Shown: positions 25,129 to 61,653 of the stretch, in pieces
Layout of the letters: each line of letters opens with the position of its first letter
Position numbering within the stretch: the first letter of the stretch is position 1
Sequence record: OL656110.1
DNA length: 64,000 bases
Reading direction: 5' to 3' (one strand)
DNA from: Escherichia phage vB_EcoM-RPN242
Made by a program: the position numbers and the translations under genes
The notes under the pieces: model-generated
Seen by the model: only the letters and a program-made list of their open reading frames with translations
What the model was told of the DNA's origin: nothing
The model's database searches: none

Positions 25129-25500
25129 ATGAAACAGTTCGTAGGTTTATACGCAGTCGGGTGTAGTAAGCCAGACGCCAACCTCACCACAGGTCAATTT
25201 ATCACAGGCACCCCAGTTTATCTGACACAGCTGGCGTCAGACAAGAACTTACCATCGGAACCGCGATTTGTCCCCCTTGGCTTGATGACAGGCCTGAAAG
25301 TTGGTCTGTATGTCGGCGTTGTGACGTTTGAAAACGGCATCGAAGCGAAGGTTCTGCCATTCAAATTGGGTAGTGAACAAATGCTGAAGGATACGATCAG
25401 TGAACACCTGAACTCACAATGTCTGGCTTCTCTGGATAAATTGTTCGGCGTAGTATCTGATGAAGGCGAGGCCACCCCCGCCTATGTGAATCAAGATTAA
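25129..25500 (+). CDS. hypothetical protein (plus strand; possible lipoprotein)
   Basis: 123-aa ORF with SD GAGAG; N-terminus MKQFVGLYAVGC carries a lipobox-like AVGC. Confidence 0.55.
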   Translation: MKQFVGLYAVGCSKPDANLTTGQFITGTPVYLTQLASDKNLPSEPRFVPLGLMTGLKVGLYVGVVTFENGIEAKVLPFKLGSEQMLKDTISEHLNSQCLASLDKLFGVVSDEGEATPAYVNQD

Positions 25501-27005
25501 TCGTGATTACCCAGCGCCACCTTCATGAACTCCACAGGGTGGCGCTCTGCCAGGTAAAACTTGTAACGCTCATGAGAGTGCCTAAGAGCGTGGTTCGTGC
25601 TGGCGTTATACGATGCATCATCCACTAAGTCCCATATCCACGCGACGTCCTTAGAGGAGTGCTGACGCATCAGACGACCCAATGTCTGTATGACGCGGAT
25701 ATATGACTTGCTCGGGTGTGCCAGTACAAGGTGGTGTAGCTTCTTGATCGACACTCCCTGCTGCATTGTCCCGTATGATGCCAACAGGGTGATGTCCTCT
25801 CCATCCTCCATCGCTTTCTGTATGCGGCGGCGGTCTTCGATCTTCACTTCCCCGTTGATGACAAACACGTTGGGCTTGACTGCGCTCAGCATATCATACA
25901 CGACCATCATGTGACCATCAATACGCTCGAACATGATGGCCACGTTTCCTTTCAGATTCAGTGCCATCTTGGCGATCAGTTCGTTGCGGGACTGGTGTGT
26001 AATAAGGTATTCTATTTCCTTGGAATAATCCCCGTCTAGACCAACAGCATCCGCCGGAGTGTGCTTCAGCTGGATCATCTTCACTTTGATGTCAGTGGCG
26101 TACCCGAGATTGATAAGATCGCGAGCCGTGATGATCTTATGGTACGCCCCGAAGTGAGCCACCACCTGAAGCCCGGCAACTTTGGTGTTCGCCAGCGTAC
26201 CTGTAACCCCCAGGCGCTGGTCGGCATAGATGCAGTTGTTCAGGATGTAAGACAGTTTCTCAGACTTGGAGGTGTGCACTTCATCCACCACGATATCACC
26301 GAACTGGTGGAACCATTCCTTCGGCTGGTCTTGAATGCCCTGCCATGTGCTGATGACGATTGGTTTGCTGATCTCCTTTGTCGCGCCCTCAAAAATCAGC
26401 TGGGTGTTAACAACGGGCTTCCAATCACTGCCATGAGCATACTCTTCGAAGTTGTCGTACAGCTGAGTGACTAGGTGGATTGACGGCACCACGATAAGCG
26501 TCTTCAGAGGACTTTCGAGAGCTTCTCTGCGCCGCCTGTAGTACCGCGCCATGACATACAGAATAAAGGACTTACCGGCACTCGTAGCCAGTTCACAGAC
26601 GCATCTGGTTTGACGCATAGCCTTGGCGATGGTGTCGTATTGGTAGTCACGAGTCTCGGCATCGATATATTCGTGATTTTCGGTGCGGATCTTTGGATGC
26701 AGACTGTCGATGAAGTCACGGATTTCTTCATCTGGGATGTCCTGAATGTACTTCAGTGCCGGATCCAGTTCAATGGTGTATCCGTTGTTCTTACAGAACT
26801 TAAATACCTCAAACAGCAGACCGATATCGATTAGACCAGATGACTTGGTAAATAGGCGGACAACCCCGTCCCATTTAGAAAAGGGGTTGGGAACGAAGTT
26901 CGGGTCTTCGAATTTGAAGTAGTCATTAAGTTCTTCCCTGATAGAAAGATCTGCGATGCAACGCATGCGGACTTCGTTAACCTTAACAATCTGAATGTCT
27001 GCCAT
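25497..27005 (-). CDS. uvsW: UvsW-like SF2 helicase
   Basis: Walker A ELATSAGKS, DEVH box and helicase C-terminal motifs; start trimmed to the ATG with SD GGGAGA. Confidence 0.8.
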   Translation of the reverse strand: MADIQIVKVNEVRMRCIADLSIREELNDYFKFEDPNFVPNPFSKWDGVVRLFTKSSGLIDIGLLFEVFKFCKNNGYTIELDPALKYIQDIPDEEIRDFIDSLHPKIRTENHEYIDAETRDYQYDTIAKAMRQTRCVCELATSAGKSFILYVMARYYRRRREALESPLKTLIVVPSIHLVTQLYDNFEEYAHGSDWKPVVNTQLIFEGATKEISKPIVISTWQGIQDQPKEWFHQFGDIVVDEVHTSKSEKLSYILNNCIYADQRLGVTGTLANTKVAGLQVVAHFGAYHKIITARDLINLGYATDIKVKMIQLKHTPADAVGLDGDYSKEIEYLITHQSRNELIAKMALNLKGNVAIMFERIDGHMMVVYDMLSAVKPNVFVINGEVKIEDRRRIQKAMEDGEDITLLASYGTMQQGVSIKKLHHLVLAHPSKSYIRVIQTLGRLMRQHSSKDVAWIWDLVDDASYNASTNHALRHSHERYKFYLAERHPVEFMKVALGNHD

Positions 27006-27030
27006 ACAAAATCTCCCAAGGATTATGGGG

Positions 27031-27037
27031 TATTTAG
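27031..27037 (-). promoter_or_regulatory. late-promoter-like motif CTAAATACCCC upstream of uvsW
   Basis: Minus-strand CTAAATA about 25 nt upstream of the start codon; T4 late consensus is TATAAATA. Confidence 0.45.
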
Positions 27038-27780
27038 TGATCCGGCCAGACTCCGTTTTGTTCTTTATCCATGCGATGATACAGACGAACACGCTCAAAC
27101 ATCTTTGTCAGAATGTCATCACGGTTGAACTCAATGACGGTTGGTAGAGGGGAAGACTCGTTGGCGATCACGTTGATGAGGCGGGTGATCTTGACGCCGA
27201 ACATCTGCTGGAACATGACCGAATATAAGCACAGCTGGATACTGTAATCCTCGATCATGCCCCGCGTCTTCATGGTGTTCGATGTCTTGAAGTCGATGAC
27301 AGCAGGTTTACCCTCATAAACCCCGATAAGGTCTACACGACCTGCAAGACCAAGCACCTCACTATATAATGGGATCTCCTGAGCATAGATCTTTGTCATC
27401 TTGTTCAGGTAAGGGAACAGCTGCTTGAACATGAACATGTATTCGCCAGCCGCTTCCAACACTTCTTTCATTGGGCGGTTCTTTAGATACAGTTCACACG
27501 CAAGGTGCAGCTTCTCCCCTCGGTCAGCACAGCGCATGGTCTCAAGATCAGCGGCCTCTGCGCCCAGCTTCTTCCTCCAAGACTCAAGCCATTCATGATC
27601 TCCAGTGCGTCCCAGCATAGTCGTGACGGATGTCAGTTTTACACCAGACGGTGAAACGTAATGACGACCATTCTCCGTCGTAACACACTCCAGTTCCTTA
27701 TGAGGAAGTTCGTATTGCTGGAATGTGTAATGACGGTTTTCGAAGTCATTCAGCTTGCGTAGATCCTGGAGAGATGCCAT
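27034..27780 (-). CDS. PD-(D/E)XK exonuclease-like protein (YqaJ/lambda-Exo-like)
   Basis: GRVDLIGV...AVIDFKTS...YSIQLCLY fits the D...(D/E)xK...QxxxY nuclease motif; SD GAGGA. Confidence 0.55.
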   Translation of the reverse strand: MASLQDLRKLNDFENRHYTFQQYELPHKELECVTTENGRHYVSPSGVKLTSVTTMLGRTGDHEWLESWRKKLGAEAADLETMRCADRGEKLHLACELYLKNRPMKEVLEAAGEYMFMFKQLFPYLNKMTKIYAQEIPLYSEVLGLAGRVDLIGVYEGKPAVIDFKTSNTMKTRGMIEDYSIQLCLYSVMFQQMFGVKITRLINVIANESSPLPTVIEFNRDDILTKMFERVRLYHRMDKEQNGVWPDH

Positions 27781-28290: not shown

Positions 28291-28791
28291 TCATGGATTA
28301 GAATCAATCGCCTTCCCAACAGATAGTGGAACCAGCTGTTGGAACTTGAAGGTCACTGTCGTCACCAGCTGAGGTACAGCCGCGTCTACGTCCACCAGTA
28401 CGTTGTCCAAAGCAGTCGGGCGGGCTTCCTCCAGCACTAGAGTGAGGCCAATCGGTCGGTTGAGGTTATCCAGCAATTCAATGGTAATGTCCTTGCTGAC
28501 AGGCAAATCCTTGCCGACGTTGCTGGTAATCCATTGGTGGATCTGTAACCATGATTTCCAGTCCTCGTCTATAACGAAAGTAAATACGACGGGATCATAG
28601 GTTAAACGCTCTGAAGGTATAGAAACCAACACGTCACCAGGAGACGGACCATCGATGCCTTCGGAGTACACCCCTGGTATACTGAAGTCGTGGATGTTAC
28701 GGGTTAGGAGTACAAGGTCTCCGATAGTCAGACGCCACTTATCGGACGCCGCGAAATTAGGGTTTTCGTTCTTGAATTGTACGTTGGACAT
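28291..28791 (-). CDS. hypothetical protein (possible baseplate/tail component)
   Basis: 166-aa ORF from the ATG with SD AAGGTG; the longer track ORF overlaps a plus-strand ORF and looks like a shadow extension. Confidence 0.45.
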   Translation of the reverse strand: MSNVQFKNENPNFAASDKWRLTIGDLVLLTRNIHDFSIPGVYSEGIDGPSPGDVLVSIPSERLTYDPVVFTFVIDEDWKSWLQIHQWITSNVGKDLPVSKDITIELLDNLNRPIGLTLVLEEARPTALDNVLVDVDAAVPQLVTTVTFKFQQLVPLSVGKAIDSNP

Positions 28792-29062
28792 AATAGCACC
28801 TTTGCTGTGGAGATATTTTGTGACCCTGATGCGCGGGATCAGTAGATTGTTGTTGGCATGCTCGATGCTCTTGTTTACGAGCTGTCGCATCTTTGTCACG
28901 CCAATAATTTCTGTTTCCGAACTCTGGAACCCAGAAGTGCGCACTGTACCTGTGACGTTGTCGGCCAGCGTTCCCACTTGTAACAAGGGTATGCTGGACA
29001 TCATCGTGCAAGAGTTCCAGCCCTTCCAGAAGCTCGTACCTTTAGGTTGCTTTGATGAGAAC

Positions 29063-29470
29063 ATGAGCACCCTCAAGCCATACTGGAAGACCACAATTCC
29101 TCTCCTGCGGCATGGCGATGAAGGGAAGATTCCATACCTATCAGCAAGTATTTATTACTCTCAGAACAACAGCATCATTATCACTTTTAATCCATCATTC
29201 CATGCCAAGCTGAAGCAACACATGGTTGGGCGACTGGATACAACATCAGATATAATCGTGACGTTCAAGATCATGAATGACTCGGATAAACCAGTACGAA
29301 TCGCAACTCAGGGTGTGTTCGTTAACAACGACGCGGTTGGAAATGGGATGAGTATCTTTGAAGTTAACCCAGGGGGAACGATCTTGATCAGACTGAGTAA
29401 TGTGGGTGTGAACTCCCTGCTGTTGGATGGCATCGAACCAGTGGGAGTTCTTCCGGCGCGGGAGCACTGA
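29063..29470 (+). CDS. hypothetical protein (plus strand inside the late module, tentative)
   Basis: A 375-nt stretch is open on plus with no convincing minus-strand alternative; weak RBS. Confidence 0.35.
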   Translation: MSTLKPYWKTTIPLLRHGDEGKIPYLSASIYYSQNNSIIITFNPSFHAKLKQHMVGRLDTTSDIIVTFKIMNDSDKPVRIATQGVFVNNDAVGNGMSIFEVNPGGTILIRLSNVGVNSLLLDGIEPVGVLPAREH

Positions 29471-30199
29471 TTACTTCAGCGCGTTCTTCAGATTATCGGA
29501 ACCAATGCTGTTGATGACACCTCCGGCGCAGATATCTTTCGCCCACTCTGAGATCACGTTGGCAAAAGAGAAGTTAAGACACTTACCAACCATGTCTTGG
29601 ATATGGGCTAACTCTGCTGCAATACCGTTCGTGATGTCCTGAGCAATAGAGGCTACTGATGCGACAGCAGTGTCGATGGCCTGAGTAACTTCAGCAGCCA
29701 GTGCCTGAATAGCATCAAGACCAGCACCGACGCCCTGAGCTACCAACTCAGCCAGCTCATTCATCTTGTTTGTGATAGTTGTGAGAACACTTTGCATGGT
29801 GTTGATCCACTGTTTGCCGAGGTTCTGAATAACCCCAAATGCATTATTGATCAGATCACAGTTGTTCGGTTCTCGACCTATAGACTTCAGGGCGGACTTA
29901 TACGACACAGATGTACCGATGCGGGAATATGCCTCGTTCACTGACTGGTCGCCATAGTTGTTCAAAGTAGTGATGCTGTTGTTGGCTGAGTTGAACATTG
30001 CTGTAGATTCGTTGAGTTTGGCTGTAGTCAACCCACCTGCCGTCAGCGCTTCCTGAATCTGCGCATTTCCGGTGTTAGCCAGTGACGCTGTAGTCGCCTT
30101 ACCACTGGTGATTAACCCCTGTGAGGCGCTGCTGAGGGACGGGAGAGGATTGGTAAAGGCGTTGCCCTGTGATAGGGCGTCATAGATCTGTGCGTTCAT
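29471..30199 (-). CDS. hypothetical Ala/Thr/Gly-rich structural protein
   Basis: ORF with a CTAAATAC motif 28 nt upstream of ATG 30199; an alternative start at 30241 would make an ATGA overlap with the upstream gene. Confidence 0.5.
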   Translation of the reverse strand: MNAQIYDALSQGNAFTNPLPSLSSASQGLITSGKATTASLANTGNAQIQEALTAGGLTTAKLNESTAMFNSANNSITTLNNYGDQSVNEAYSRIGTSVSYKSALKSIGREPNNCDLINNAFGVIQNLGKQWINTMQSVLTTITNKMNELAELVAQGVGAGLDAIQALAAEVTQAIDTAVASVASIAQDITNGIAAELAHIQDMVGKCLNFSFANVISEWAKDICAGGVINSIGSDNLKNALK

Positions 30200-30227
30200 A
30201 AGAAAATACCCCCATGGATGATGGGGG

Positions 30228-30234
30228 TATTTAG
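30228..30234 (-). promoter_or_regulatory. late-promoter-like motif CTAAATACCCCC
   Basis: 28 nt upstream of ATG 30199; embedded in a palindrome. Confidence 0.4.
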
Positions 30235-30237
30235 GGA

Positions 30238-30408
30238 TCATGGTAGTTTGTAAACGAAGTTGGACCAGAACTTACGAACAAACTTCTTGACATAAACCAT
30301 TCGGTTGGCGTATTCCCCATCCTTCAGGTCATTGTAGGTCTCGATCCCTACCGCGCCCAAGAAGTACGCCGTGAAGATATAGCAGAACAGATTGATGACG
30401 ACAAACAT
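30238..30408 (-). CDS. small membrane protein (56 aa)
   Basis: Below the 60-aa cutoff of the ORF track. SD GGAGATA 4 nt upstream of the ATG; hydrophobic N-terminus MFVVINLFCYIFTAYFLGAVGI. Confidence 0.4.
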   Translation of the reverse strand: MFVVINLFCYIFTAYFLGAVGIETYNDLKDGEYANRMVYVKKFVRKFWSNFVYKLP

Positions 30409-58984: not shown

Positions 58985-58991
58985 TATTTAG
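58985..58991 (-). promoter_or_regulatory. late-promoter-like motif CTAAATACCCC upstream of tailspike 2
   Basis: Part of a conserved cassette repeated at 61647. Confidence 0.45.
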
Positions 58992-61646: not shown

Positions 61647-61653
61647 TATTTAG
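61647..61653 (-). promoter_or_regulatory. late-promoter-like motif CTAAATACCCC upstream of tailspike 3
   Basis: Part of a conserved cassette repeated at 58985. Confidence 0.45.

Follow-up and report, generated by a model that had tools for sequence, protein, structure and literature searches.

The closest described counterparts of the locus studied here are pairs of neighboring, divergent genes annotated in phages of the family Ackermannviridae, namely gp145/gp146 of Ag3, ORF127/ORF128 of LIMEstone1, gp70/gp69 of Maynard and WJJ54112/WJJ54113 of AV101. We examined the corresponding region in a 64,000 nt stretch of Escherichia phage vB_EcoM-RPN242 (sequence record OL656110.1), which is called the window in the following and provides all coordinates. 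The window matches these annotated pairs in divergent layout, gene lengths (approx. 501 and 651 nt) and neighbors, without a substantive difference. In the list of open reading frames (ORFs) of the window, however, the two genes appear as longer ORFs, 28291..29094 on the minus strand (267 aa, GTG start) and 28655..29470 on the plus strand (271 aa, ATG start). They share 440 nt (28655–29094), exactly as claimed in an earlier prediction made from the sequence alone (the original prediction). Long mutual shadow ORFs of this kind are confined to the lineage of the window and AV101.

For the minus-strand gene, the reference system is gp3 of phage T4 (entry 9mkb in PDB), the tube terminator. Both share sequence homology, a similar length (176 aa in T4, 166 aa here), a colinear alignment and presence in virions, whereas the similarity is low (E 3.7e-6) and the genomic neighbors are other than those in T4. 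The two ORF extensions resemble the general artefact of shadow ORFs, in that they are long stop-free antisense frames with coinciding third codon positions, frequent in the window and broken in relatives. They differ from it in that two divergent genes shadow each other, which results in the apparent overlap, and in that the 5′ third of the real plus-strand gene has an atypical codon usage, so that intrinsic statistics become ambiguous. For the plus-strand product, a member of the Pfam family DUF7424, the nearest functional analog may be Llp of phage T5. Llp is an early, ‘small’ lipoprotein which blocks FhuA from the periplasmic side, and its gene adjoins the late gene of pb5 (PMC9586334).

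Taken as a whole, the locus very probably consists of the gp3 gene on the minus strand and a DUF7424 lipoprotein gene on the plus strand, which diverge from a spacer of 28 nt, with the extensions of both ORFs being shadows. Corrected models of both genes are already present in public records, and the observation is real but ordinary.

The Locus in Related Phages

The window belongs to an Ackermannviridae phage. Identity across 3 kb around the locus amounts to 99.3% with Escherichia phage AV101, 89% with the Agtrevirus phages Ag3 and SKML-39 and 85% with Dickeya Limestonevirus phages. Both genes are annotated in every related record checked (AV101, Ag3, RC-2014, SKML-39, Vi01, Maynard, Magnus, IME250, 2050H1 and LIMEstone1). 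A gene of approx. 500 nt on the strand of the surrounding genes is labelled ‘gp3 tail completion / sheath stabiliser’ in these relatives. The opposite-strand gene of approx. 650 nt begins approx. 30 nt beyond the gp3 start codon, and its end abuts a convergent gene of 729 nt; it is named hypothetical, ‘putative signal peptide present’ (LIMEstone1) or ‘conserved hypothetical lipoprotein’ (Maynard). Even in Vibrio phage K444 and Aeromonas phage TSW001, whose DUF7424 proteins are only 24–26% identical to that of the window, the order UvsW, exonuclease, UvsY and gp3 on one strand, followed by the DUF7424 gene on the other, is retained. The region had been called a late module, a label which is loose, as the neighbors include UvsW, an exonuclease and UvsY.

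The Minus-Strand Gene Encodes a gp3 Homolog

The product of the minus-strand gene matches phrog_45 (E 4.5e-33). Using phmmer, its residues 29–151 were aligned to residues 30–162 of T4 gp3. Since this alignment is colinear, there is no room for an N-terminal extension of 101 residues. The gene is annotated at approx. 500 nt in Ag3, RC-2014, SKML-39, Vi01, Magnus and others, and orthologs were found in the virions of LIMEstone1 (ORF127; PMC3296691) and Sajous1 (gp168; PMC10892097). Thus, it combines homology over its length with virion presence, as a T4 gp3-type terminator should. The sequence of its ribosome-binding site, GCACCTTT, is invariant in seven phages. The proposed extent of the minus-strand gene, 28291..28791, is borne out by the phrog_45 and T4 gp3 matches and by the annotation of the relatives.

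A minor difference concerns the 3′ end. In AV101, gp3 is annotated at 513 nt (contig L001, 2280–2792), compared to 501 nt in the window and most relatives. The protein match between both phages ends at the same place, and the difference presumably lies in the stop codon of AV101, whose protein would then be longer by four C-terminal residues.

The Plus-Strand Gene Starts at GTG 28820

The plus-strand product was assigned to DUF7424 (PF24199) with 193.5 bits at a cut-off of 27, and residues 25–215 cover positions 2–196 of the 196 profile positions. It is, therefore, a full-length match far above the gathering score. The corresponding PHROG family, phrog_3832, was aligned over positions 1–214 of 216. 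Using tblastn, 291 phage records were found to match the 216 aa product at a coverage of at least 80%, with identities of 24–99%. The gene is annotated at 651 nt in AV101, Ag3, RC-2014, SKML-39, LIMEstone1 and Maynard. Seven phages from five genera share GTG 28820 and the GTGGAGA ahead of it without any change. Between 28820 and 29062, the plus frame is free of stop codons in all seven relatives compared, and its amino acid identity equals or exceeds that of the minus frame at every divergence (e.g., 31% versus 21% in Bue1). Homolog searches for each candidate gene had been suggested as a check; they yielded phrog_45 and T4 gp3 for the minus strand, and DUF7424, phrog_3832 and the 291 records for the plus strand.

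Two other start codons were considered for the plus-strand gene. Translation from ATG 28829 (213 aa) instead of GTG 28820 is quite unlikely. ATG is the more usual start codon, some database members have 213 aa and the PHROG match begins at this methionine. However, the codon is changed to ATA in Vi01 and Maynard while GTG is invariant, the GGAG motif is 16 nt away compared to 7 nt for GTG, and most records annotate 651 nt. The mature lipoprotein is identical with either start.

A start at 29063, as assumed in the original prediction, is very improbable. The plus-strand gene would then comprise 29063..29470 only (135 aa), and 28792–29062 would be a non-coding gap carrying a promoter. An ATG is indeed present at 29063, just as the ATG at 28791 is on the minus strand. 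A short call exists in the Bue1 record, as does a profile of 107 aa (phrog_37762), and clear coding statistics begin at this position (see below). On the other hand, the Pfam domain begins at residue 25 of 216 and phrog_3832 at its first position, and the tblastn match to Bue1 itself spans residues 5–215. Further, the signal peptide, Cys22, C54 and C77 are kept down to 24% identity, and both the stop-free frame and the invariant GTG and GGAG lie ahead of 29063. To judge from the sequences compared, 29063 is contradicted as a start: it lies 243 nt too far downstream, and the signal peptide and the first DUF7424 residues are encoded in the 81 codons before it. Two real genes on opposite strands with mutual shadow ORFs, as originally predicted, are thus supported by comparative data, while the predicted plus-strand start is not. 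Since the gene starts at GTG 28820, the gap of 270 nt (28792–29062), in which a promoter had been expected, does not exist, and the true intergenic spacer has 28 nt (28792–28819).

N-terminally truncated calls of DUF7424 proteins, which lose the signal peptide, occur in public records and are flagged here. HWB57_gp118 of Erwinia phage Bue1 (contig L005, 2840–3163) was called with 107 aa although residues 5–215 are encoded according to tblastn. The profile phrog_37762 has 107 positions, the length of the Bue1 call, and within the window protein it aligns to the C-terminal part alone. In Enterobacter phage EspM4VN, the call has 174 aa (P0034).

Table 1. Coordinates of genes, shadow ORFs and putative signals at the gp3/DUF7424 locus.
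Feature	Coordinates	Strand	Remark
T4 gp3 homolog, tail-tube terminator / tail completion gene	28291..28791	-	166 aa, ATG at 28791
gp3 ribosome-binding site AAGGTG	28797..28802	-	5 nt ahead of ATG 28791, from sequence
Shadow extension of minus ORF, non-coding on that strand	28792..29094	-	101 codons upstream of gp3 ATG
DUF7424 lipoprotein precursor gene	28820..29470	+	216 aa, GTG start
Ribosome-binding site GGAG of lipoprotein gene	28809..28812	+	7 nt ahead of GTG 28820, from sequence
Predicted signal peptide MTLMRGISRLLLACSMLLFTS and lipobox Cys22 codon	28820..28885	+	Cys22 codon 28883-28885
Shadow extension of plus ORF over 5′ part of gp3, non-coding on that strand	28655..28819	+	
TAAATAC inside gp3	28581-28587	+	kept in 7/8 phages, several genera
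TAAATAC inside lipoprotein gene	29148-29154	-	kept in 7/8 phages, several genera
Small hairpin over the two abutting stop codons of the convergent genes	29464..29482	.	weak in window
DUF7217 virion protein gene, convergent	29471..30199	-	start probably ATG 30199, not 30241
Late-promoter-like motif CTAAATAccccc before DUF7217 gene	30228..30234	-	CTAAATA scan

Origin of the Shadow ORFs and Codon Usage

The third codon positions of the two overlapping frames coincide. For this reason, antisense stops are rare, both shadows stay open, and neither GC content at third positions (GC3) nor periodicity can separate the strands. GC3 and codon-position periodicity per strand, suggested as a check along with codon usage, consequently gave no discrimination, and codon usage was decisive only outside 28820–29062. 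In this frame, 14 of the 52 long ORFs of the window face 100 or more consecutive antisense codons without a stop; in the codon-on-codon frame, 29 of 52 do. When synonymous codons were shuffled, the open run observed beside the 5′ end was reached in 4.7% of trials for the plus-strand gene (110 codons) and in 28% for gp3 (63 codons). Based on these counts and shuffles, the mutual shadowing is within chance for this genome. The plus-strand shadow is interrupted in relatives as well, since the frame upstream of GTG 28820 stops within 8–13 codons in Ag3, SKML-39, IME250, Bue1 and Magnus.

A log-likelihood ratio was used to score codon usage, with 35 other genes from the window as training set; typical chunks of 81 codons reach +35 bits in true sense and −52 bits in shadow frames. 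The minus frame of gp3 scored +38 and +19 bits in its two segments, which is decisive over 28294–28791, and the plus frame scored +28 bits over 29063–29470, which is decisive, too. Across the shadow 28655–28819, −22 bits were obtained for plus and +19 bits for minus. What speaks against the two-gene model is the ambiguous result for 28820–29062, with −3.5 bits for plus and +5.7 bits for minus. As the codon statistics are unsupportive here, the case for the plus frame in this segment is built on the comparative data, which outweigh them. The ambiguity also explains why 29063 had been chosen as start originally. In general, the codon usage in the 5′ third of the plus-strand gene resembles neither sense nor shadow, which calls for caution when intrinsic gene finders are applied to signal-peptide regions. 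For annotation, the locus teaches that two divergent genes can shadow each other, producing an apparent antisense overlap of 440 nt, and that intrinsic statistics of codon usage can be of no help over the third of a gene that holds the signal peptide, where a comparison with relatives settles the matter at once.

Such a comparison also bears on the minus-strand ORF in its full length. Among 11 distinct relatives compared, the frame upstream of the gp3 ATG is shut within 4–18 codons in nine, i.e., after 16 codons in Ag3 and SKML-39, 9 in Vi01 and Maynard, 4 in Bue1, 10 in 2050H1 and 18 in Magnus, and likewise in the Vibrio and Aeromonas phages. It runs longer in RC-2014 (60 codons) and IME250 (75 codons), and only the window and AV101 keep it open over 120 codons. 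Over 28820–29062, the minus frame contains at least one stop in seven of seven relatives, so the two frames are not both open and conserved as in a true antisense overlapping pair. It is hardly conceivable that gp3 is N-terminally extended to the 267-aa ORF 28291..29094, or that both long ORFs are real and overlap in antisense, as the open frame in the window and AV101, a phrog_45 score which is a little higher for the long form (121.5 versus 115.9 bits) and a codon score over 28820–29062 far above that of a typical shadow face the stops in the relatives, the alignment of residue 30 of T4 gp3 with residue 29 of the 166-aa form, the good ribosome-binding site 5 nt ahead of ATG 28791 and the absence of the long form from the annotation of all related records checked. 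Given the evidence from stop codons, T4 gp3 and the ribosome-binding site, the higher phrog_45 score carries no meaning. Support for the 267-aa ORF had been named as the finding to be set against a two-gene reading; instead, the frame was found closed in nine of the 11 relatives.

DUF7424 Proteins Are Predicted Lipoproteins

The sole point of wider interest at this locus is the plus-strand product, i.e., a core lipoprotein of the Ackermannviridae with a confidently predicted fold which is not listed in two virion proteomes. Its N-terminus, MTLMRGISRLLLACSMLLFTS followed by C, has a positively charged n-region, a hydrophobic core and a lipobox (LFTS/C, with the cleavage site marked by the slash), and the lipobox Cys falls within the first approx. 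40 residues, as expected for a bacterial lipoprotein. Because of these features, the protein should be exported by Sec, lipidated and cleaved by signal peptidase II. A lipobox was found in all 12 phage homologs examined, down to 24% identity (e.g., LTSC, VSGC, IGGC, ISSC and LISC), followed by Arg or Lys. A PROSITE-like lipobox pattern was passed by 117 of 145 family proteins, with mostly R or K at position +2, and most of the 28 failures are N-terminally truncated gene calls. Several GenBank records use the label putative lipoprotein. The +2 rule for sorting by the Lol system is established, and according to this rule, the Arg at +2 would direct the protein to the outer membrane.

Two alignments, of 21 and 37 sequences, show C22 and C77 without exception. 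C54 is likewise invariant in the smaller alignment and at least 90% conserved in the larger one, and C54 and C77 would fit a periplasmic disulfide. The mature chain has approx. 195 residues and was modeled by AlphaFold with a diverse alignment as a mixed, beta-rich globular domain (pLDDT 90.7, pTM 0.85). No solved structural relative was found for this confident model. Matches in BFVD were restricted to DUF7424 proteins, and a profile search of PDB sequences returned only a marginal match to a collagen adhesin (E 0.0016). The defence models of PADLOC did not match the window protein; when distant bacterial homologs and their cassette neighbors were searched, only P0141 matched, marginally, a type II methyltransferase model (E 0.009, 12.4 bits). 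In a literature search, no paper mentioning DUF7424 was found.

A hidden Markov model (HMM) search of 1.84 billion representative proteins detected 85 DUF7424 members, mostly of 190–230 aa, whereas a search with a single distant member detected one metagenome-assembled genome only. Distant bacterial DUF7424 lipoproteins (21–24% identity) lie in a recurring cassette (contigs L015, 7414–10215; L016, 7632–10433; L018, 3727–5994; L019; L020). Its order is a divergent serine resolvase, a zinc-ribbon / DrpB-like protein of 110 aa, DUF7424 and an uncharacterised protein of 401–466 aa; in two contigs, genes for DUF1425, LpoB and CsgG come after it. The cassette looks like a mobile envelope module. For the DUF7424 family, the lipobox in nearly all members, the model without solved relative and the bacterial cassettes are new.

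Transcription Signals at the Locus

Lying alone in opposite orientation, the lipoprotein gene is flanked by a late structural gene on either side, one of them 28 nt away and the other directly abutting (0 nt). As the 28 nt spacer is filled by both ribosome-binding sites, which lie back to back, neither gene has its promoter between them, and the promoter of the plus-strand gene must be inside or beyond the gp3 coding sequence.

The motif CTAAATA (often CTAAATAcccc), which we take to be the proposed ViI-like late promoter, has 11 matches in the window, all on the minus strand, compared to 4.6 expected. It occurs approx. 25–35 nt ahead of starts such as those of DUF7217 (30234) and UvsW (27037). 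No late-type motif was found directly ahead of gp3. LIMEstone1 has late promoters annotated at equivalent places, none of them for ORF127 or ORF128. The nearest candidate source of minus-strand transcripts is the motif at 30234, from which they might read through into gp3. In the simplest interpretation, gp3 would be transcribed by this read-through, antisense to the whole lipoprotein gene. No Ackermannviridae transcriptome covering the DUF7424 gene was found in the literature search, nor were phenotype data for this gene.

At 30234..30228, 27037..27031, 58991..58985 and 61653..61647, all on the minus strand, CTAAATAcccc is followed by an inverted repeat, CCCC(A)...(T)GGGG, and then by the start codon. 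Since the G-run is the only Shine-Dalgarno-like element there, the leader hairpin could gate the translation of late mRNA.

Conservation at synonymous sites is high, compared to a mean of 0.46, in codons 1–14 (0.82) and 104–123 (approx. 0.7) of the plus-strand gene and in codons 64–83 of gp3 (approx. 0.6–0.66). The islands at codons 104–123 and 64–83 each hold a TAAATAC on the opposite strand, which points at the other gene. Compared to the strong sites, both copies miss the C in front and the CCC behind, and further TAAATAC copies are found by chance at other places. At most, the two copies are candidate promoters of the divergent genes, embedded in coding sequence, or else reflect another constraint at the nucleotide level.

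At the junction of the convergent genes, a hairpin is annotated as stem-loop or terminator in Ag3 and Magnus, between which one compensatory change (G/C to C/G) was seen. Folding z-scores range from −1.3 to −2.5 in Ag3 and Magnus, compared to −0.7 and +0.4 in the window. A terminator scan detected none at 29464–29482. Due to the weak z-scores and the empty scan, a terminator in the window is not convincing.

Possible Function of the DUF7424 Lipoprotein

A role in exclusion or receptor masking, by analogy to T5 Llp, is possible, but tentative. The lipoprotein would be made before the late genes and, from the periplasmic side, would target some conserved part of the host envelope. The effect might be masking of a receptor, superinfection exclusion or protection of the progeny from debris, as for Llp. 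Late transcripts started at the CTAAATAcccc promoter (30234) would then cross the lipoprotein gene in antisense and continue into gp3. Sequence and fold of the DUF7424 protein show no detectable similarity to T5 Llp or to Cor of T1/phi80, which exclude superinfection by receptor blocking, and homology is, therefore, not indicated. Mature Llp has approx. 60 residues, while the mature DUF7424 protein has approx. 195. In addition, DUF7424 differs from Llp and Cor as a core gene across phages of many host genera.

Two further points weigh against this interpretation. First, DUF7424 is conserved (approx. 60% identity) in phages of Salmonella, Escherichia, Klebsiella, Dickeya and Serratia. This is unlike typical exclusion genes, as those track variable receptors, and conservation this strong across host genera points to a target which is itself conserved, or to a different role. 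Second, a sigma-70 scan found no passing promoter upstream of the plus-strand gene, and the single candidate of a relaxed scan, an extended −10 element (TGgTATACT, 28675–28683), is not conserved. As to the virion, the orthologs of the lipoprotein are missing from two proteomes, which list ORF127 and ORF129, but not ORF128, in LIMEstone1 (PMC3296691), and gp166 and gp168, but not gp167, in Sajous1 (PMC10892097). The lipoprotein appears not to be part of the virion, but absence from two proteomes is negative evidence only.

The conservation would be compatible with a lysis or envelope-remodelling factor, which we regard as a doubtful alternative to an exclusion protein. It might be a spanin-like component of the outer membrane, for example, or it might inhibit or modulate some conserved machine of the periplasm or outer membrane. 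For an outer-membrane spanin (o-spanin), a neighboring inner-membrane spanin (i-spanin) on the same strand and a short mature chain without globular domain would be expected. Instead, the window and all relatives checked have both neighbors on the other strand, and the mature chain is modeled as a large folded domain. Lacking a same-strand partner and a C-terminal membrane segment, and with this domain, the gene is not in a spanin locus.

Exclusion and transcription can also be joined in one reading, which is unlikely as a whole: DUF7424 would represent a new class of ‘lytic conversion’ lipoproteins with an early promoter embedded in gp3 and a late shut-off by antisense. The protein would be anchored in the inner leaflet of the outer membrane and would disable an envelope component which Ackermannviridae need after their tailspikes have cut capsule or O-antigen. 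Infected cell and progeny would thereby be protected, until late antisense transcription from 30234 shuts the lipoprotein gene off. The TAAATAC islands at 28581–28587 (+) and 29148–29154 (−) would serve as embedded promoters of the divergent genes. Ackermannviridae are widely proposed for biocontrol and therapy, and an exclusion or other envelope-acting factor common to all of them, if it exists, would be worth knowing.

Neighboring Genes

The convergent neighbor of the lipoprotein gene is covered by Pfam DUF7217 over residues 15–256 of the 256-aa ORF 29471..30241 (−). Relatives annotate this gene at 729 nt, and ATG 30199 is probably the start, resulting in 242 aa. The CTAAATAccccc motif at 30234 falls inside the longer ORF. 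The protein was confirmed as structural in LIMEstone1 (ORF129) and detected in Sajous1 (gp166). A ‘gp214-217 operon’ described for Sajous1 (PMC10892097) was considered for the present locus and rejected, as it lies elsewhere in the genome; the orthologs are gp166–168.

UvsW is listed as ORF 25497..27098 (−) with 533 aa and a TTG start, while relatives annotate approx. 1509 nt. A start at ATG approx. 27005 is likely because the CTAAATAcccc motif at 27037 precedes it. Directly downstream of UvsW, a second lone opposite-strand gene is located, 25129..25500 (+), which encodes 123 aa, belongs to phrog_4255 and corresponds by position to gp172 of Sajous1. Its N-terminus, MKQFVGLYAVGC, fails the strict pattern, but resembles a very short signal of the lipobox type.

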